Part shown: positions 3,592-16,720 of the stretch, one piece after another | Layout: each line of letters begins with the position of its first letter | Numbering within the stretch: position 1 is the stretch's first letter | IMG/VR virus record: IMGVR_UViG_3300025892_000094 | Span: 1 to 30,160 of that record | Length of the DNA stretch: 30,160 nucleotides | Origin: a virus | Taxonomy: Duplodnaviria > Caudoviricetes | Direction: 5' to 3' (one strand) | Notes under the pieces: model-generated | Database searches by the model: none | What the model saw: only the letters and a program-made list of their open reading frames with translations | What the model was told of the DNA's origin: nothing | Translations under genes and position numbers: made by a program

Positions 3592-5899
3592 TAAACTGCT
3601 TACCAATATATCTTGGATGTATGATAAAGGCTATCCTGACTTCACTATAAAAGAAGATAGAGAAGCATTATACGATTATCTCTTATCTATAGGATTTTCA
3701 CACTCTGATGTTATAGAATTATCTGAAAGATTTATTAGAGAAGACGATGAGTGGTGGACAAAATTGTCTCCTGAACAACAAGCACAATATATTAAAGACC
3801 ACCCTAAATCACAAAAAGCATTAGATGCTAAAGAAAAAGAAGACGAGGATGATGAAGAAACATCAGAAAAGCCAAAAGATGATATTGATGTTAAAGTAGA
3901 AAAACAAAAAGAAAAATATGCGGAGAAAGGTTTAGATGAATTTGGTAAACCTACAGGAGAACCTAAAAATCCTAATTTAGATAAAGACATTACAGGAAAA
4001 GTAGGACCTAAAGGTGAAAAAGTAGAAGTCTTAAAAGTACACCATGGACTTGATAATGTTAATGCAGGAGTTCAAGAATCAAACGTTATTCCTGATGAAG
4101 ATAAGAAAAATATAAGTTCTGCTATTCAAAAGATTAAAGAAGAAAAAGTAGAAACAATGACAGACGATGAGATAAATTCATTGAGAAGATGGGTAGCAGT
4201 AAAAGACCAAAAAGGACAGCCTGATGAAGAGAAACGAAGTGCTGAATTTTACATAGCAGACATAAGTCCAAATGATTGGAGATTCGGTAACAAAAGTGTA
4301 GGTGGCGGAGAACCTGCAAGACAAGCAAGAAAAAAAGCAACAATGACAGGTGGAAAAGGTAAAGCACCATATGATGAAATAGTAAAATTAGCAGATGCAG
4401 TTGGACTAAAAATGGCATCACCAACTAATTCAAGAACCACTTCAAAGATGATGGCTCCTACAGCAATAAATAAAAAGAGAAAAGAAGAAAAAATTAAGAT
4501 AGACAAAAAGAAAGGTAAAGTTGTAAGTGCAACTATTGCAGGTCAAACACATACGAAAAAATCTGTACCAAGAATAAGTGATGTAGAAAAAGCTTTGATA
4601 GAAAAAGGTATGGACGCTGGTGAAGCGAAGAGAAAAGCAAGAAAAGCAGTATTAGGTATACAAAGATATAATGACCAAATAGATTTATTAGCAGAGACAG
4701 CTGAGGCAAGTAAAGGTAAATTAGAAGTAGTTGATTATGGTGATACAAGTACTACTGAAGGTAAAAAGACTGCAATTAATCAATGTTTACAAGACTTAGC
4801 AAATACATTAGAAGAAAAATTAGAAAGTACTACGCCTCCTCATCCACCATTATCAAGAAGCCATTATGAGTTAGCAGAATTAATTAGAAATGTAAAAAAC
4901 CCATTAGAAGACCCTGAATGGGATAATCTATCATTTGAAGAACAACAAGAAAGAGCAAATAAATTTAATGAAGATATGGGGCAAATATTAGTAGAGATGA
5001 ATGCATTAGGTGATATGATGACTTCACGTGCTGAAGTAGCAGAAGCTATAACTTATATGCACAGATTATCACAAGGATTTACTGCTATTTTACCATCATC
5101 TGAAACTTTTAAAGTAACTGATGTTTATGCTATAAAAGACCCAGGCGATACAAAAGACCCTGAAAAATTAGCAGAATCAATACAACAAGTATTAGTTAGT
5201 ATTGAAGTATCAGGCGGTGAAAGTGTAAAGTATGATGCAGGAGCTAGGTCTTCTTCTGCTGGTAAAGTATCGTTAACCGTTTATAAGAATAAAAGCACAC
5301 GAAAAACTATAAATGATTTACTTGATACATATGATAAAGTTTACAATGGAGATGATTATCCACCAAGTGATGAAGTTATAAAAGAGTTAGATGATGTAAG
5401 AGATGCAACTAAAGCACAAGTTGTAAATGATGGTATTATGACAGAAGAAGAATATGATAAGATTTACAACGCAGGATTAGAAACAGGCGAGAAAGCTTTT
5501 TCGGCATTTATGAAAAAAGCGGGGAATAAAGGAAAACTTATGAAAGCAGGGTTTACTGAAGATGATTTGAGAAGAGTTAAAGAAACTTTTATGAAACATT
5601 GTGCGCACGGAAAAGTAATGGCAGGAATAAATAATCGTGATACAGAATACAATAAGTTTAATAATGTTGCACACAAGATATCAGGATTTAAAAAAGATTC
5701 AGACACAGACGAAGTTATTAAAAAAGGTAAATATAAAACCGTAGAAGCAGATGGTATAAATACTATTTCAGGAATGGATTTTAGTTGTGACCAAGGATTT
5801 AGTATCGCATCGCCACCAAAGAAAAAGATAAGTCCTGAAAACACTAATCCATCAGCAATCGTAGCTTTAGACGCGCAGACAGGAAAAAAAGTTAGATAA
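3578..5899 (+). CDS. Large hypothetical protein with possible C-terminal PD-(D/E)XK-like nuclease domain
   Basis: 773-aa ORF with a charged N-terminal half; C-terminal E..E...LPSSETFKVTD...ESVK pattern resembles restriction-endonuclease-fold motifs. ORF is solid, function tentative. Confidence 0.6.
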   Translation: MNSFDKLLTNISWMYDKGYPDFTIKEDREALYDYLLSIGFSHSDVIELSERFIREDDEWWTKLSPEQQAQYIKDHPKSQKALDAKEKEDEDDEETSEKPKDDIDVKVEKQKEKYAEKGLDEFGKPTGEPKNPNLDKDITGKVGPKGEKVEVLKVHHGLDNVNAGVQESNVIPDEDKKNISSAIQKIKEEKVETMTDDEINSLRRWVAVKDQKGQPDEEKRSAEFYIADISPNDWRFGNKSVGGGEPARQARKKATMTGGKGKAPYDEIVKLADAVGLKMASPTNSRTTSKMMAPTAINKKRKEEKIKIDKKKGKVVSATIAGQTHTKKSVPRISDVEKALIEKGMDAGEAKRKARKAVLGIQRYNDQIDLLAETAEASKGKLEVVDYGDTSTTEGKKTAINQCLQDLANTLEEKLESTTPPHPPLSRSHYELAELIRNVKNPLEDPEWDNLSFEEQQERANKFNEDMGQILVEMNALGDMMTSRAEVAEAITYMHRLSQGFTAILPSSETFKVTDVYAIKDPGDTKDPEKLAESIQQVLVSIEVSGGESVKYDAGARSSSAGKVSLTVYKNKSTRKTINDLLDTYDKVYNGDDYPPSDEVIKELDDVRDATKAQVVNDGIMTEEEYDKIYNAGLETGEKAFSAFMKKAGNKGKLMKAGFTEDDLRRVKETFMKHCAHGKVMAGINNRDTEYNKFNNVAHKISGFKKDSDTDEVIKKGKYKTVEADGINTISGMDFSCDQGFSIASPPKKKISPENTNPSAIVALDAQTGKKVR

Positions 5900-6291
5900 T
5901 GATAGATTCACAACTACTTTGTACTTTCTCTAACAAGAAAGAACTTACTGAAATGGTCTTACTCATCAAAGAGTCTGCACCACTTTCTATGAAAAAACTT
6001 TATGTTTTAGAAAGAACAGAAAACTCTAATGAGTTAATGTTGACCTATAATGTGTTAAAATCAGAAGTATCGGGATTTCTCCCTAACACAATATTATTAC
6101 ATCGAAAGAAAGAAACAAATACACTATACACAATCAATGCAGTTAACATTATAATTAGGAATGCTAACAACGGTATCTTAGACACATCGTATAGATTACA
6201 ATGGAACAACTATCGTAATTGTATTTTATTGACAAATAAACAAGGCTTAAACAAAATAGATACACGATTAAAAGAAATTATTGATTTATAA
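5899..6291 (+). CDS. Hypothetical protein
   Basis: 130-aa ORF with TAATG coupling, immediately upstream of the SSB gene. Confidence 0.8.
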   Translation: MIDSQLLCTFSNKKELTEMVLLIKESAPLSMKKLYVLERTENSNELMLTYNVLKSEVSGFLPNTILLHRKKETNTLYTINAVNIIIRNANNGILDTSYRLQWNNYRNCILLTNKQGLNKIDTRLKEIIDL

Positions 6292-6317
6292 AAATAAATT
6301 AACGTTTTGAATTTTAC

Positions 6318-6352
6318 AACCATACTTATATATGAATGGTTACTCAAGTAAC
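6318..6352 (+). promoter_or_regulatory. Putative regulatory site upstream of SSB (12-mer motif plus two inverted repeats)
   Basis: ATACTTATATAT at 6322-6333 (identical copy at 25909-25920); AACCAT-N12-ATGGTT at 6318-6341; GTTACT-CA-AGTAAC at 6339-6352. Confidence 0.5.
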
Positions 6353-6389
6353 AATTAACAATTAAATAATAACAATAGGAGAATATCAA

Positions 6390-7142
6390 ATGGATATTAC
6401 AGCAATACGCAAAAGGTTAGAGCAACTTCAAACTTCTAACACGAAAACCAATAATCTTTGGAAACCACAACCAGGAAAACAAGTAGTCCGAATCGTGCCT
6501 TATCAACACAATAAAGAGAATCCTTTTCAGGAACTTTTCTTTCATTATGATTTAGGTGGCAAGACTTATTTGTCTCCGATAACATTTGGTCGTCCTGACC
6601 CAATCGAAGAGTTTGCACAAAAACTTCGTTCAAGTGGTAACAAAGATGATTATCAGATAGCAAAGAAACTCATGGCTAAAATGAGAACATTTGCACCTGT
6701 AATAGTTCGTGGTGAAGAAAGCGAAGGTGTTCGATTTTGGGGCTTTGGTAAAATGGTTTATCAAGAGCTTCTATCTGTAATAGCAGACCCTGATTATGGT
6801 GACATCACAGATTCAATGAATGGTCGTGATGTAACGGTAGAATTTATTTCTGCTGAAGAAGCAGGAAAGAACTTTCCTGTTACTAACATAAGGGTCAAGC
6901 CTAATCAAAATCCAATCACAGAAGATGATAAGATGCTTGATAAAATGTTGAATGAACAACCAAACATTCAAGAAATGTATCAAGAGAAGACCTATGAAGA
7001 ACTTACTGAAGTTCTTAATACTTGGTTGACTCCATCTGAAGAAGAGGGTAATGATAAAGGCGATTCGGTGACAACTGAAGTTCTTTCCAAGAAAACGGTT
7101 AAAGACACTTCAGAAGCGTTCGACCAACTCTTCAATAAGTAA
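6390..7142 (+). CDS. Single-stranded DNA-binding protein, T4 gp32-like
   Basis: LWKPQPGKQVVRIVP, ELFFHY, DPIEEF, VRFWGFGK, DYGDITD..GRD, acidic tail ending FDQLFNK. AGGAG SD; directly upstream of the recombinase. Confidence 0.8.
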   Translation: MDITAIRKRLEQLQTSNTKTNNLWKPQPGKQVVRIVPYQHNKENPFQELFFHYDLGGKTYLSPITFGRPDPIEEFAQKLRSSGNKDDYQIAKKLMAKMRTFAPVIVRGEESEGVRFWGFGKMVYQELLSVIADPDYGDITDSMNGRDVTVEFISAEEAGKNFPVTNIRVKPNQNPITEDDKMLDKMLNEQPNIQEMYQEKTYEELTEVLNTWLTPSEEEGNDKGDSVTTEVLSKKTVKDTSEAFDQLFNK

Positions 7143-7162
7143 TACAACGTAAACAGAAACTC

Positions 7163-7188
7163 GGGGCGGGCATAAGTTCGCCCCATTC
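7163..7188 (+). terminator. GC-rich hairpin; weak terminator or mRNA-stabilising stem
   Basis: GGGGCGGGC-ATAA-GTTCGCCCC (9 bp including 2 G-U), followed only by ATTC. Confidence 0.55.
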
Positions 7189-7204
7189 GAATAGGAGTTA
7201 TAGT

Positions 7205-8308
7205 ATGTCTAATACTAAAGACGGGTTAGAGGGTCTTTTGGCCGACACCCTAAACAAAAAATTTAGCAATCAAAAAGTAGCTTACTTTCTTGATGGTAGT
7301 GATACAACACCCACAGATATTAGAGAATTTTTATCTACAGGTTCGAGTATATTAGATTTAGCAATATCTAATAGACCAAATGGTGGTATAGCTGTTGGAA
7401 GGATTACAGAAATTAATGGTTTAGAGTCAAGTGGTAAATCATTACTCGGTGCACATATACTTGCAGAAACTCAAAAGAAAGATGGTGTAGCAGTTTATAT
7501 AGATACTGAAACAGCAGTTAGTGAAGACTTTTTACAAGTTATCGGTGTAGATAGTAGTAAAATGTTATATCTTCATCTTGAAACGGTAGAAGACATATTT
7601 GAAGCTATTGAAGAGATTGTGACTAAAGTTCGTGAAAGTGATAAGAATAGATTAGTAACAATATTAGTTGATTCAGTAGCTGCGGCATCTACTAAATTTG
7701 AAATGGAAGCTGATTTTGATAAAGATGGATATGCTACACACAAAGCAATCATCATATCTAAAGCACTTCGTAAAATTACTCAAATGATAGGTAGACAACG
7801 TGTAGCACTTGTATTTACTAATCAGTTAAGACAAAAACTTGGTGTTATGTTTGGTGACCCTTATACAACATCAGGCGGTAAAGCATTGCCTTTTCACGCT
7901 TCAACTCGTATTAGATTGAAGAACAAAGGTCAGATTAAAGATACAAAAAAGAATACAATCGGAATGACTATAACATCACAAGTTATCAAGAATAGATTAG
8001 GCCCGCCTTTGAGACGCGCAGACTTTCCTTTATACTTCGATAGAGGTATAGATGATAAATCATCTTGGTTACAAGTTATGAAAGAATATAAACTTCTTAA
8101 ACAAACAGGCGCTTGGTATACTATAGAACACGAAGGTGAAGATATCAAATTTCAATCAAAAGATTTTGAGTCTATTCTTGAAAAACACGATGGCTTAGCA
8201 GATGTGTTGTATGAAAAAATTTGTAGTGTCTTGATTCTTAAATATGATACTTCAGCTCTTGGATTGGATGATGTTGTAGAAACTGATGAACCTGCGGACG
8301 AGTTATAA
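7205..8308 (+). CDS. recA: RecA/UvsX recombinase
   Basis: LSTGSSILD, GRITEINGLESSGKS (Walker A), YIDTE, ILVDSVAA (Walker B), FTNQLR, TSGGKALPFHAS, KNR. Confidence 0.95.
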   Translation: MSNTKDGLEGLLADTLNKKFSNQKVAYFLDGSDTTPTDIREFLSTGSSILDLAISNRPNGGIAVGRITEINGLESSGKSLLGAHILAETQKKDGVAVYIDTETAVSEDFLQVIGVDSSKMLYLHLETVEDIFEAIEEIVTKVRESDKNRLVTILVDSVAAASTKFEMEADFDKDGYATHKAIIISKALRKITQMIGRQRVALVFTNQLRQKLGVMFGDPYTTSGGKALPFHASTRIRLKNKGQIKDTKKNTIGMTITSQVIKNRLGPPLRRADFPLYFDRGIDDKSSWLQVMKEYKLLKQTGAWYTIEHEGEDIKFQSKDFESILEKHDGLADVLYEKICSVLILKYDTSALGLDDVVETDEPADEL

Positions 8309-11801: not shown

Positions 11802-13811
11802 ATGGAAAAATTTAAACTCTCAGAAAATTTTATTAACGGATACAAACGCAAAAAGGCACCATTCGGTTTTAACGGATTAGGTGAATTAGTTTATATGCGA
11901 ACCTACTCACGAATCAAAGAAAATGGTAAAAATGAACGATGGTGGGAAACGGTACAACGAGTCGTAGAGGGAACTTACTCTATGCAAAAAGATTGGATTG
12001 AATCACACCAATTAGGGTGGAATGCGTGGCAAGCTCAAAAGTCTGCTCAAGAAATGTATGAGCGAATTTTTACAATGAAATTCTTGCCTCCTGGACGCGG
12101 TCTGTGGGCTATGGGTACACCTATCACAGAAGAAAAAGGATTATACGCCGCCCTAAATAATTGTGCATTTGTATCGACAAAAACACTAAAAGAAGACTAT
12201 GCTAAACCATTTACATTTTTAATGGATGCAAGTATGTTAGGTGTTGGAGTTGGATTTGATACAAAGGGTGCAGGAGAGATAGTAGTTAAAGGCATTGACA
12301 AAAAGAAAAATGAACAAGTATTTCAAATACCTGATACTCGTGAAGGTTGGGTTGAGTCGATGAAACTATTATTAGAAAGTTATTTTCATGGTCAAGGTAA
12401 AATGAAATTTGATTACTCAAAGATAAGACTTGCGGGAGAACCGATAAGTGGTTTCGGTGGAGTAGCAAGTGGACCTGACCCGTTAGAAGAAGTTCATAAT
12501 AGTATCTCTGAAGTTTTAGAAAAGAATAGTGGAAAAGATATTACAATTACAACAATCGTAGATATAATGAATCTAATCGGTAAATGTGTTGTAGCAGGTA
12601 ATGTTAGAAGAACTGCTGAGATTGTATTTGGTGAGCCGGACAATGAAGAGTATTTAGATTTAAAGAATTATAAAGTTAATCCACATCGTGACCAATATGG
12701 TTGGACATCTAACAATAGTATATTTGCTGAGTTAGGAATGGATTATACAGAAGCAGCAAAAAGAATTAATGATAATGGAGAACCAGGATTTGCTTGGTTG
12801 GACAATATGAGGAAGTATTCAAGAATGAAAAATGGGGGTGATGATAAAGACCATAGAGCTATGGGTGGTAATCCTTGTTTAGAGCAGACACTTGAATCTT
12901 ACGAGTTATGTTGTTTAGTAGAAACGTTTCCTGACAATCACGAAGACTTTGACGATTATGCACGTACCCTAAAATATGCGTATCTATATGCAAAGACGGT
13001 TACATTAGGTAGAACTCATTGGAGTGATACAAATCGTGTGATGTTAAGAAACAGAAGAATTGGTTGTAGTGTAAGTGGTGTAGCTCAGTTTATTACTAAT
13101 CGTGGATTAGATGAACTGAAGAATTGGTTAAACGATGGTTACGATGTTATTCAAGCTTGGGATAAACAATATTCTGATTGGATGGCTGTACCTAATTCTA
13201 TAAAGACTACAAGTGTTAAACCGAGTGGAACGGTTTCATTATTAGCAGGCGCTACACCTGGTCTCCATTATCCTGAATCAAGATTTTATAAAAGAAGAAT
13301 GAGAATATCAAAACATTCAGATTTATTAGAACCTATGAAAAAAGCAGGTTATCATATAGAACCAGCATTTGGTTCTGAAGACACAACAATGGTTGTAGAA
13401 GTTCCTGTTGATGTTGGTGAGAATATCAAAACAGCAGGAGAACTTTCAATATGGGAACAATTCTCTTTAGCAGCATTTATGCAAAGACATTGGGCTGATA
13501 ATCAAGTTAGTTGTACGGTAACGTTCAATCCTGAAACAGAATCAGAACAAATTGCCCCTTGTTTGAATTATTATCAATATCAGTTAAAAGGCATAAGTTT
13601 GCTACCAAGACACGAATTAGGTGCTTACAAACAGATGCCTTACGAAGCTATTGATGAGAAGACTTATCAAAAAGAGGTTTCGAAAATCGGTAAGCTATCA
13701 TTTGGTGTAATTAAGAATGAAGAAGCAGATGTAGATAAATTCTGTAATAATGATTCTTGTGAAATTATTCCAATGACAGGTGATAACGATGACCAAGACT
13801 ATGCAAATTAA
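11802..13811 (+). CDS. nrdJ: Class II adenosylcobalamin-dependent ribonucleotide reductase, monomeric RTPR type
   Basis: RTYSR, PPGRGLW, NNCAF, GNVRRTAE, NPCLEQ active-site loop, TSVKPSGTVS, C-terminal redox cysteines FCNNDSC. No small-subunit gene adjacent. Confidence 0.92.
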   Translation: MEKFKLSENFINGYKRKKAPFGFNGLGELVYMRTYSRIKENGKNERWWETVQRVVEGTYSMQKDWIESHQLGWNAWQAQKSAQEMYERIFTMKFLPPGRGLWAMGTPITEEKGLYAALNNCAFVSTKTLKEDYAKPFTFLMDASMLGVGVGFDTKGAGEIVVKGIDKKKNEQVFQIPDTREGWVESMKLLLESYFHGQGKMKFDYSKIRLAGEPISGFGGVASGPDPLEEVHNSISEVLEKNSGKDITITTIVDIMNLIGKCVVAGNVRRTAEIVFGEPDNEEYLDLKNYKVNPHRDQYGWTSNNSIFAELGMDYTEAAKRINDNGEPGFAWLDNMRKYSRMKNGGDDKDHRAMGGNPCLEQTLESYELCCLVETFPDNHEDFDDYARTLKYAYLYAKTVTLGRTHWSDTNRVMLRNRRIGCSVSGVAQFITNRGLDELKNWLNDGYDVIQAWDKQYSDWMAVPNSIKTTSVKPSGTVSLLAGATPGLHYPESRFYKRRMRISKHSDLLEPMKKAGYHIEPAFGSEDTTMVVEVPVDVGENIKTAGELSIWEQFSLAAFMQRHWADNQVSCTVTFNPETESEQIAPCLNYYQYQLKGISLLPRHELGAYKQMPYEAIDEKTYQKEVSKIGKLSFGVIKNEEADVDKFCNNDSCEIIPMTGDNDDQDYAN

Positions 13812-13821
13812 TAAAAAGCGG

Positions 13822-13855
13822 ACAGGCAGACGGCACACCTGTAGAAAAATGTGCC
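13822..13855 (+). ncRNA. Predicted H-type pseudoknot, candidate cis-regulatory RNA
   Basis: S1 ACAGG (13822-26) / CCTGT (13838-42); S2 GGCACA (13832-37) / TGTGCC (13850-55); L1 CAGAC, L2 zero, L3 AGAAAAA. All pairs Watson-Crick. Confidence 0.6.
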
Positions 13856-13885
13856 AATGTTCAACACAACAATAGGAGAATGATT

Positions 13886-16615
13886 ATGACTTATCGTAAT
13901 CTAATCTCAGTATTAATGATGTCTTTTAGCCTTGTTTTCGGACAAGCAGTTACAGGATATGTTGGTACTGAAGATGGTCCACTCGTTGGAGCGAATGTAG
14001 TTGTTGAAGGAACTGAACTTGGTGGAGTAAGTGACGATGAAGGAAAATTCGTTATTGAAACAGGTTCAGGTAACTTTGATATTACTGCATCGTACATCGG
14101 GTTCATCGCCCAAACTCAAAAAGTAGAGATTGGCGATATAGTTGCTTCAGTTAGTTTCAATTTAGAAGCTGATGTAGTAGCGATGTCGGCACTTGAAGTT
14201 TTAGCTTCAAGAGCTGATGAAACAACACCTGTTGCTTACACTAATATTAGTAAAGAAGAGATGGAAATCAGACTTGGTAGTCAAGATATTCCAATGATTC
14301 TTAATACTACACCAAGTGTATATGCAACTAACCAAGGCGGAGGTGCGGGTGATGCTCGTATCAATGTACGTGGTTTCAACCAAAGAAATGTTGCTGTGAT
14401 GATAAACGGTGTTCCTCAGAATGATATGGAGAACGGATGGGTTTATTGGTCTAATTGGGACGGAGTAGGTGATGCTACTTCTTCAATTCAGATGCAAAGA
14501 GGTCTATCAGCTGTTAATCTCGCAACACCATCAATTGGTGGAACTATGAATATTATCACAGACCCTGCAGCGCAGGAGAAAGGTGGTAAGTTCAAACAAG
14601 AAGTAGGTGAGGGAGGATTTCTTAAATCTACTATTAACTATAACTCAGGTCTTATCAATGATAAGTTAGCTTTGAGTGGAACTATAGTTAGAAAAACCGG
14701 TGATGGATTCATTGACGGAACTTGGACAGATGCGTGGGCTTACTATGCAGGTGCAAGTTATGCCGTTAGTGATAAACAACGATTCGAGTTGTATGGAATC
14801 GGTGCACCACAAAGACACGGACAGAACTTATATAAGCAAAATATTGCTACTTACTCTCAAGAGTTAGCAGGTAGTATTGATGGTTATAATGATTCTGCGT
14901 ATGTTTCAGGCGAGAAGTTTGAAACTGAAGCAGGTAGGTTCTATAATCAGAATGTCGCTCCTGTAGACCCTTCTTATAAAGGTAAACAATACTTTTATAT
15001 GTATGGTGATAAAACACAGGATAGATATAGTTCTGATTTCTTAAATGAAAGAGAGAATTTCTTTCATAAGCCTCTCGTTAACTTGAATCACTTTCTTGAT
15101 ATCAATGACGATATGAGGTTAAGTTCAGTAGCATATTGGAGCGGTGGTTCCGGTGGTGGTACAGGAACTTATGGTAGCGTAAGTAGGATGCCCGCGATAG
15201 AAGGAAGCCCTTGGTATGCAAGTTCACCTTGGACTTGGGATTGGAATGCTGAAATAGCACAGAACTCTGCTAATGTAGATTCTTCTTTTTCAGACACAGA
15301 AAATCGTTCAACAGGTATACTTCGTAATTCAATCAACAGACAGAACACTTATGGTTTAATTTCAAAGTTAAACTATGATGTATCAGACGAACTTGAAGTT
15401 CAAGTTGGTATTGATTGGAGAACAGCCGGTATTGAACACGCTCGTGAAGTTCGTGATTTACTCGGCGGTGACTACTATGTAGACTATGCTGATGACAATG
15501 CTCCTGACGGAAAGAAAGTTGGTTTAGGCGACATAATTGCTTATCACAACGAAACAACGGTTGATTGGTTTGGTGCTTTCTTACAAGGTAAGTATGATGT
15601 TGAGAAGTTCAGTTTATATGGTATGGGTGGAATATCTACTATTGGATATACTTATCAAGACCATTTCTCTGTAGAGAAAGAACTTGTCGAAGCAGATGCA
15701 ATCACAACATTTCAAGTTAAAGGTGGTGGTAGATTCAATCTTGATGATAGACTATCAGCATTTGCTAATCTTGGATATGTTCAGAAGCCACCAATCTTAG
15801 ATAACGTTATCGATTATAATGGTAATGTTTCTCAGAATCCTGATAACGAGAAATTCACATCAATGGAAATTGGTGGTGAATATAATAGTGGGTTAGTGTC
15901 TATCAAGGGTAGTTATTATAACACTCAATGGAAAGACAGAAACCTAACTAAGTCTGTTACTACAGGACAAGGTGACTCAGGTGATACTGACATCATTTAT
16001 CTTACAGGTGTAAATCAATCACACTCAGGTGTAGAGATTGAGTCTAAAGTGGCTCTTCACGAAATGGTTGATGTTGACTTCATCGTAAGTTTAGGTGATT
16101 GGTATTTCGATGGAGATGCTAATGGTGACTATACTGAGATGGAATACAATGATGATAATCAAATCATTGGTCAAACATCTACTGAGTATAGATATGCTCT
16201 TGACAAACTAATGGTTGGTGATATGCCACAGACATCTTATGTTGGTGGTCTTACACTAAAACCAATAGATGGTTTAAGAGTACAAGGTCTGTACAAGTGG
16301 TATGATAATCACTTTTCAGATTGGTCTCCTGATAGTCGTGAAGTTGATGGTGACGCAGATAGAGCGCAAGTATGGAAAACTCCATCTTATGGTAAGTTAG
16401 ACTTACACGCTTCTTATAAGTTACCTGAGATAGCAGGACTTGATATGACTATATCAGCTCATATGTTCAACGCACTTGATGGTGTTTATGTTCAAGATGC
16501 TGTTGATAATTCAAAGTATAATGGGTATGGTGACAAAGTTCACGCTCCTCATAATGCTGAAGTATTCTTGGGTACACCAAGACACTTCAATATTGGCTTA
16601 GCAGTCAATTTCTAA
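13886..16615 (+). CDS. TonB-dependent outer-membrane receptor with N-terminal carboxypeptidase-regulatory-like extension
   Basis: Signal peptide, PLVGANVVVEGT..G..SD..GKF extension, TonB-box-like LEVLASRA, plug motif INVRGF...VMINGVP, C-terminal FNIGLAVNF beta-signal. AGGAG at 13874-78 favours ATG 13886 over 13880. Confidence 0.92.
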   Translation: MTYRNLISVLMMSFSLVFGQAVTGYVGTEDGPLVGANVVVEGTELGGVSDDEGKFVIETGSGNFDITASYIGFIAQTQKVEIGDIVASVSFNLEADVVAMSALEVLASRADETTPVAYTNISKEEMEIRLGSQDIPMILNTTPSVYATNQGGGAGDARINVRGFNQRNVAVMINGVPQNDMENGWVYWSNWDGVGDATSSIQMQRGLSAVNLATPSIGGTMNIITDPAAQEKGGKFKQEVGEGGFLKSTINYNSGLINDKLALSGTIVRKTGDGFIDGTWTDAWAYYAGASYAVSDKQRFELYGIGAPQRHGQNLYKQNIATYSQELAGSIDGYNDSAYVSGEKFETEAGRFYNQNVAPVDPSYKGKQYFYMYGDKTQDRYSSDFLNERENFFHKPLVNLNHFLDINDDMRLSSVAYWSGGSGGGTGTYGSVSRMPAIEGSPWYASSPWTWDWNAEIAQNSANVDSSFSDTENRSTGILRNSINRQNTYGLISKLNYDVSDELEVQVGIDWRTAGIEHAREVRDLLGGDYYVDYADDNAPDGKKVGLGDIIAYHNETTVDWFGAFLQGKYDVEKFSLYGMGGISTIGYTYQDHFSVEKELVEADAITTFQVKGGGRFNLDDRLSAFANLGYVQKPPILDNVIDYNGNVSQNPDNEKFTSMEIGGEYNSGLVSIKGSYYNTQWKDRNLTKSVTTGQGDSGDTDIIYLTGVNQSHSGVEIESKVALHEMVDVDFIVSLGDWYFDGDANGDYTEMEYNDDNQIIGQTSTEYRYALDKLMVGDMPQTSYVGGLTLKPIDGLRVQGLYKWYDNHFSDWSPDSREVDGDADRAQVWKTPSYGKLDLHASYKLPEIAGLDMTISAHMFNALDGVYVQDAVDNSKYNGYGDKVHAPHNAEVFLGTPRHFNIGLAVNF

Positions 16616-16619
16616 AATG

Positions 16620-16654
16620 ATAAATCGGGGGGATTAATTTCCCCCCATTTATTT
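16620..16654 (+). terminator. Intrinsic (Rho-independent) terminator after the TonB-dependent receptor
   Basis: GGGGGGA-TTAATT-TCCCCCC stem (16627-16646) followed by ATTTATTT. Confidence 0.8.
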
Positions 16655-16665
16655 CAAAAAAACAC

Positions 16666-16694
16666 TTGACCTTTAAAGGTTTTCTTCGTAAGTT
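16666..16694 (+). promoter_or_regulatory. Sigma70-type promoter for the dut-polB-clamp operon, overlapped by a palindrome
   Basis: A-tract, TTGACC (16666-71), 17 nt, TAAGTT (16689-94). Same ACTTGAC context as the promoter at 2284-2290. Perfect palindrome ACCTTTAAAGGT at 16669-16680. Confidence 0.6.
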
Positions 16695-16720
16695 TAAACG
16701 TAAATTGAGAGAGTATAATT

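Follow-up and report, generated by a model that had tools for sequence, protein, structure and literature searches.

A conserved pseudoknot in the leader of a TonB-dependent receptor gene of T4-like marine phages, a putative cis-acting RNA

The pseudoknot and its genomic setting

What does a compact RNA fold do in the gap between a ribonucleotide reductase gene and a transporter gene of a T4-like phage, and to which of the two genes does it belong? The window, meaning the whole analysed stretch of 30,160 nt, was a 30-kb contig of a T4-like phage encoding gp32, UvsX, a DnaB-like helicase, class II ribonucleotide reductase, dUTPase, PolB and the clamp loader. The gene nrdJ (11802–13811, + strand) was annotated as adenosylcobalamin-dependent ribonucleoside-triphosphate reductase, with 364 bits against TIGR02505 at a cut-off of 340. 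It was the usual upstream neighbour and ended with a stop codon at 13809–13811. A gap of 74 nt, housing the pseudoknot, separated it from the gene for a TonB-dependent receptor of 909 amino acids (13886–16615, + strand) with Plug and CarbopepD_reg_2 domains. The receptor start was moved from 13880 to 13886 as the most likely position, which corresponds to the 909-aa database form and lies 7 nt past the Shine-Dalgarno (SD) sequence. The receptor gave no match to the BtuB model, and its single-sequence structure prediction reached a pLDDT of only 28. An intrinsic-terminator-like hairpin ended the receptor gene (16627–16656, + strand), and a fold of −8 kcal/mol or better was present 3' of the receptor stop in 57 of 57 loci. 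By eye, four of these 57 folds were tRNA-like sequence, and in some phages tRNA-like sequence was found in place of the post-receptor terminator or 3' of nrdJ. For the + strand from 12960 to 14055, no sigma-70-like site was listed, and there was no consensus promoter near the motif.

Several further features were noted in the window and in related phages. The gene 32 leader (6291–6390 of the window) was long and A/U-rich, with a linker and SD at its end much like those of the receptor, and a GC-rich hairpin was located 3' of gene 32 (7142–7205). A promoter-like sequence of the type TTGAC-17 nt-TATATT recurred 5' of PolB in relatives, and a weaker one was present 5' of dUTPase in the window (16660–16720), both as judged by eye. 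A relative of 165 kb held T4-like capsid, portal and sheath genes. It also encoded tmRNA, bS21, peptide deformylase, ThyX, three Mom-family proteins, a DruA-like protein and a large sugar-modification cluster. In some phages, a glutamine synthetase gene was located between nrdJ and the receptor (e.g., 4524–5528 in one locus), and two more loci showed the beginning of this gene. A conserved hydrophobic coiled-coil protein without clear family was encoded 5' of the receptor in some phages (635–1480, 405–1397 and 1701–2564 in three loci).

The fold was an H-type pseudoknot of 34 nt (13822–13855, + strand) with Watson-Crick pairs throughout. It was preceded by a short spacer ending in GCGG (13812–13821, + strand). 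The 5' strand of stem 1 (13822–13826, + strand), in which the closing GG was invariant, paired with its 3' strand at 13838–13842. Loop 1 comprised 5 nt (13827–13831, + strand); its C and A were kept in 89 of 90 distinct cores and its G in 81 of 90, while the last two bases were free. The 5' strand of stem 2 (13832–13837, + strand) paired with 13850–13855. Loop 3 (13843–13849, + strand) had 7 nt with five adenines at its end; it measured 8–9 nt in a few phages and was shorter in one case. A mostly unstructured A/C-rich linker of conserved length (13856–13873, + strand) led to the SD sequence AGGAG (13874–13878, + strand), located 7 nt 5' of the likely start. Both stem pairings, the 5-nt loop 1, the 7-nt A-rich loop 3, the linker and AGGAG had been described in the initial annotation and were all borne out by the sequence. 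Its 5-bp stem 1 was present as pairing, but the core was reduced to 4 bp because the outer pair was often broken in relatives. The absence of a loop 2 was true of the window; yet the junction pair 13837:13850 never covaried and was A-C in 3 of the 90 cores, so that loop 2 may be 1 nt.

On either strand of the window, the pseudoknot was the sole Watson-Crick H-type fold with at least seven G-C pairs. None of 40 dinucleotide shuffles (one strand each) yielded a comparable H-type fold with at least seven G-C pairs. Nested folding alone was unremarkable (z = 0.04 to −1.32 for three + strand pieces), and support for the pseudoknot therefore rests on comparison. Loop 1 would make major-groove contacts with stem 2, and loop 3 would pack in the stem-1 minor groove. 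By analogy, the loop-1 cytosine and the loop-3 adenines may form triples.

Conservation and association with the receptor gene

Homologous leaders were collected with the receptor as query, which gave 360 viral relatives; 80 were kept, nine of these without leader. In a search by geometry, with no sequence consensus, the identical 34-nt geometry was found in 71 of 71 protein-selected loci with intact leader. A second, partly overlapping set obtained with a cellular query carried the element in 76 of 76 loci, with four left out and a small bonus for consensus bases in the search. Among the 28 distinct protein-selected cores, 95.5% of cells were paired, compared to 19–50% in slid registers. Six of the 11 pairs changed on both sides, in both stems, and 0 of 500 shuffles reached this. 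On the receptor tree (FastTree, 57 phage rows, without recombination model), both sides of pairs 3:19 and 14:31, numbered within the 34-nt core, changed together four times each; pair 2:20 co-changed once and pair 12:33 changed state ten times. Across the 90 distinct cores, pair 2:20 was C-G in 82 and U-A in 8, pair 3:19 A-U in 71 and U-A in 19, and pair 14:31 A-U in 64 and G-C in 26. Pair 12:33 occurred as A-U (69), G-C (12) and G-U (9). The junction adenine A16 was invariant, with U or C as its partner at position 29. Altogether, 16 of the 34 positions were invariant or nearly so. Only one of 18 viral-collection matches with a base other than C at position 6 was a real copy. The comparison of homologous leaders proposed at the outset thus detected compensatory changes in both stems, and on this comparative evidence the pseudoknot is real and under selection.

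The Rfam scan, also proposed initially, gave no match to preQ1-I, SAM-II, cobalamin or other riboswitch models, at E ≤ 5 on the window and E ≤ 10 on 131 nt; Rfam models score no pseudoknot pairs, and a remote likeness could escape them. Conservation in all 71 loci, covariation and the empty Rfam scan uphold the initial annotation of a conserved cis element of the receptor gene without known riboswitch match.

The G-U variants in stem 2 favour an element acting as + strand RNA. A minus-strand terminator at 13842–13822 was considered and rejected; it is stem 1 reversed, no minus-strand gene ends there and the same variants favour the + strand. Near-identical contigs from RNA libraries of three studies, which may include DNA, extended over the 3' portion of the fold and the start of the receptor gene. 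Contigs starting exactly at 13827 were not accepted as a transcript end, because 13827–13856 is the 30-mer where related phages branch and the start is an assembly-graph break. Contig depth was discarded as well. In one set of four runs, depth was low over nrdJ and dUTPase and high over the receptor among the matches listed; contigs cannot rank genes, and cellular homologues add depth. Another set of four runs came from a single study and may hold DNA. A TTCACATA-like box was found just 5' of the fold in 74 of 143 distinct leaders, and GCGG in 77 of 143. Both were kept whichever gene preceded, and similar letters occurred in some cellular leaders. An interpretation of the TTCACATA box as promoter was not adopted, as it follows different upstream genes and no conserved −35 sequence was seen by eye.

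Pattern searches and gene order were used to assign the element to a gene. Among the 120 viral pattern matches listed (about 340 estimated), 107 had a receptor match downstream; the other 13 had nrdJ upstream and downstream sequence that was short or weakly matching. Metagenome matches showed a similar distribution: among 120 listed (about 530 estimated), 116 lay in the receptor leader and four were unrelated and non-pairing. In the loci selected by nrdJ (n = 80), the motif was scored after nrdJ in 42 that continue with the receptor gene and in three truncated ones. It was absent in 18 of 18 loci with PolB next, in two with other genes, in two truncated loci and in eight cut at or near the nrdJ end. 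Five further receptor loci comprised four with glutamine synthetase inserted, in which the motif stood before the receptor, and one with a longer loop 3. In three loci, receptor and motif were located behind an unrelated gene. One copy per contig was present in four of five large contigs searched, the fifth being without leader. No second gene association of the motif was found in the viral, metagenome and genome searches. A 3' element of nrdJ was rejected, since the motif was missing after nrdJ whenever another gene followed. Because the motif tracks the receptor whatever lies upstream and is missing when PolB follows nrdJ, gene order indicates that the pseudoknot is the leader element of the receptor, separate from nrdJ.

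Cellular homologues and likely host

The nearest cellular receptor examined was 65% identical and named from Marinimicrobia. The phage receptor copies formed one clade inside ten cellular ones. Because of this nearest relative and the nesting of the phage clade among cellular copies, Marinimicrobia are the likely donor and the likely host phylum. The element was absent from the leaders of cellular homologues in 30 loci of the likely host class and 29 loci of a second phylum, a few of these leaders being truncated. Searching 185,579 species genomes with the strict pattern returned six matches, none of them a true cellular copy: two were non-pairing and four showed phage synteny in unrelated bins. 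Contigs with phage gene order were observed in bins of Flavobacteriales, Pelagibacter and an archaeon and were most likely mis-binned. With a stem-2 covariance model, the best match in 151 Marinimicrobia genomes reached 20.6 bits, compared to 46–59 bits for true copies. Two of the top full-length matches were located inside ORFs, one of them antisense, and copies in host genomes were rejected.

Among 60 cellular loci scanned with Rfam, only tRNAs were found beside the homologues, except for TPP riboswitches before four distant paralogues. These TPP-riboswitch receptor paralogues had 30–37% identity at the N-terminus. Directly downstream and co-oriented, a deoxynucleoside kinase gene was present in 2 of 30 cellular loci and a nucleotide pyrophosphatase/phosphodiesterase gene in three of the five closest second-phylum matches; most neighbours varied. 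These neighbours give a weak hint that the receptor substrate may be of nucleotide type. A link to cobalamin was rejected, with no BtuB model match and neither a cobalamin riboswitch nor a cobalamin family beside the homologues scanned.

Candidate functions and known systems

The distance between fold and AUG was narrow, with quartiles of 28, 29 and 30 nt and a range of 24–39 nt in 157 distinct linkers of 52% mean identity. The distance between stop codon and stem had quartiles of 13, 18 and 23 nt and a range of 5–100 nt. The SD sequence was 7 nt from the AUG in 102 of 141 leaders. A small hairpin was present in 7 of 10 linkers of 33 nt or more, compared to 11 of 147 shorter ones. The spacing ruler is not strict, because these eleven short linkers hold a hairpin too. 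Counted over all 157 distinct linkers, the optional hairpin occurred in 18, mostly longer ones, with apparent compensatory variants. Predicted SD access was 0.72 with the fold locked and 0.56 with the 5' strand of stem 2 blocked, and the median probability of an unpaired SD with the fold locked was 0.77. A conserved anti-SD alternative was not found; native leaders had −2.78 kcal/mol, compared to −2.73 for swapped, −2.55 for linker-shuffled and −2.81 for strand-shuffled leaders. No terminator was predicted downstream of the fold on the + strand. The footprint of the accommodated 30S subunit is given as −18/+10, and steric control by a preQ1 aptamer is described as lost at a 4-nt gap (PMC9410914). 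The pseudoknot sits just outside this footprint, too far for steric control of the preQ1 type.

The explanation tentatively preferred here, with confidence somewhat short of even, is a ribosome-loading (S1/30S standby) element that would fold by itself without ligand, probably stabilised by triples, with protection of the mRNA as a possible second effect. A rigid fold would result from ten or eleven canonical pairs and from triples of the loop-1 C and the loop-3 adenines, and S1 or the 30S platform would grip it. Next, the SD and the open linker, rich in A and C, would enter the 30S cleft, and receptor output from the distal end of a long replication transcript would increase. The same fold may shield processed receptor mRNA from RNase E/G, with the terminator hairpin closing the 3' end. 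Ribosome loading is consistent with the fixed register to the AUG despite dissimilar linkers, the compensating hairpin of long linkers, an SD predicted to be most open with the fold locked and the lack of a selected alternative pairing. In tisB, a 5' pseudoknot is reported as required for binding of S1 and 30S (PMC7708055). T4 gene 32 is described as having a pseudoknot 67 nt upstream, then an unstructured A/U-rich linker, and as giving the most stable mRNA of T4 (PMC3014915). Luteoviral pseudoknots are described as stabilised by a triple with a protonated C and by loop adenines that lie in the minor groove of stem 1 (10.1101/2024.12.07.627321). Against ribosome loading, there is no obvious need for a standby element: the SD is strong and accessible as it is, and the fold is missing from the cellular homologues. 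The fixed spacing would suit a protein operator equally well. In addition, 16 near-invariant positions of 34 would exceed the need of a loosely specific S1 contact and suit a specific protein or ligand.

A translational operator is rather unlikely. A phage or host RNA-binding protein would spread over the linker and SD, or trap 30S there, and turn the receptor down in the manner of gp32. The layout is that of T4 gene 32: the distance from the start of the pseudoknot to the AUG is 64 nt here and 67 nt in T4, and an unstructured A-rich stretch follows the fold (PMC3014915). The fixed register, the highly conserved base identity at the junction and the occurrence in phages only point the same way. 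However, an outer-membrane receptor would not be plausible as autogenous repressor, and the leader of the window gp32 lacked such a fold. The window gp32 has 0 Cys and hence lacks the zinc site of T4 gp32, which is needed for pseudoknot recognition. No RegA-like regulator was named among 121 ORFs of the 165-kb relative or 10 window proteins, most of which had no family. A compact riboswitch is unlikely. Its pocket would be formed by the loop-1 bases and the junction, with an indirect effect on ribosome loading or mRNA decay; as ligand, a nucleoside or nucleotide would be more probable than cobalamin. Consistent with this are the restriction of the element to an importer leader, the preQ1-I-like size, closing G-C pair and A-rich loop 3, the invariant junction adenine with its U/C partner and the nucleotide-related genes directly 3' of some cellular homologues. 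Opening of stem 2 also drops predicted SD access from 0.72 to 0.56, and riboswitches are described as present in marine phages, if rare (PMC9004378). However, the anti-SD fold was no better than controls and no + strand terminator followed; the element is too distant from the SD for steric control (PMC9410914), fully paired without ligand, not found in the cellular genomes searched and devoid of the preQ1-binding U and C. A classical riboswitch is disfavoured because there is no conserved anti-SD/terminator switch, the fold lies outside the 30S footprint and the binding bases of preQ1-I are missing. With no cellular copy and no second gene association found either, the ligand sensor suggested by the initial annotation has lost ground. 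A phage-invented riboswitch class without cellular counterpart, whose junction would bind a nucleoside or nucleotide and tune ribosome loading at a distance, is quite unlikely; if true, receptor import would be matched to nucleotide supply for phage DNA replication.

It is very unlikely that the element acts on stability alone; in that case RNase E/G would cut in the AU-rich spacer, the rigid fold would protect the receptor message afterwards, and initiation would not be affected directly. Of the 61 genomes scanned from the likely host class, 59 had RNase E/G, and a terminator stands at the 3' end. The consensus for RNase E cleavage is given as RNWUU (PMC5222698). It occurred at most 25 nt upstream in 108 of 131 leaders, compared to 47 in shuffles, and in 1 of 104 linkers. 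T4 gene 32 mRNA is reported to be cut at −71, next to its pseudoknot (PMC3014915), and scanning by RNase E to be hindered by obstacles (PMC7509114). However, RNWUU was equally common after other stops of a related phage (51/85 versus 17/28) and often overlapped the nrdJ end; the apparent enrichment at the spacer vanished against this post-stop control and was dropped. The narrow AUG spacing would also remain unexplained. Of the nuclease block and the protein operator raised by the initial annotation, the operator stays, and the 5'-3' exonuclease form of the block is weakened because RNase J was not found in any of the 61 host-class genomes.

The element is a real, uncatalogued, phage-specific cis-acting RNA of a known architectural kind with a putative function. 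No description of the motif was found in the literature; the alignment files of PMC10690425 (8,495 IMG/VR candidate RNAs) and the supplement of PMC5737381 were outside this search. The text of PMC10690425 and four of its supplementary files listed no candidate before Plug or CarbopepD genes, in a table that stops 25 nt from the gene. In a widespread clade of marine phages, a strictly conserved pseudoknot stands in front of an importer gene that probably came from the host, and the cellular relatives of this importer have no such fold. This suggests that phages can equip the metabolic genes they have captured with post-transcriptional control of their own. With 34 nt and natural compensatory variants, the element is directly testable. 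A ligand, if found, would define a new riboswitch class and give a substrate clue for an uncharacterised Marinimicrobia transporter family; an enhancer would represent a minimal, portable translation element.

Among known systems, preQ1-I riboswitches are described with a G in the P1 closing pair, an A-rich loop 3, and a loop-1 U and a specificity cytosine (PMC11625349). The element here shared the size of about 34 nt, the H-type fold, the G-C closing stem 1 and the A-rich loop 3. Pair G5-C17 and the five adenines were present in 90 of 90 cores, which were constrained by the pattern, and were also invariant in the protein-selected alignment. Unlike preQ1-I, it had a C in place of the loop-1 U (89 of 90), an A always before the 3' strand of P1 in place of the specificity C, a stem 2 of six pairs and no coupling to SD or terminator. 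No queuosine family was detected among 121 scanned ORFs of the 165-kb relative, and the downstream gene is the receptor. The luteoviral frameshift pseudoknots of ScYLV and BWYV also have a C at the start of loop 1 and an A-rich loop facing stem 1, but loop 1 and stem 2 are longer in the element here. A recoding signal was rejected, because the element is intergenic, 3' of the stop codon and without conserved slippery site; in addition, stop and stem are 5–100 nt apart instead of a fixed 5–9 nt, and the upstream gene is interchangeable. The gene 32 leaders of T4, T2 and RB69 likewise belong to T4-like phages, hold an H-type pseudoknot about 65 nt before the AUG with an unstructured A-rich stretch to the ribosome-binding site (RBS) and lie inside a polycistronic message. 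In contrast to them, the element here precedes a transporter gene, and repeated UUAA is not general in its linker. In tisB, a pseudoknot is likewise located 5' of a single-stranded stretch, away from the RBS; the tisB RBS, however, is sequestered and about 100 nt away, whereas here the SD is open at a spacing of about 29 nt. The element belongs to neither group, although by analogy its mode of action would come closest to that of the gene 32 leader or of the tisB standby pseudoknot.
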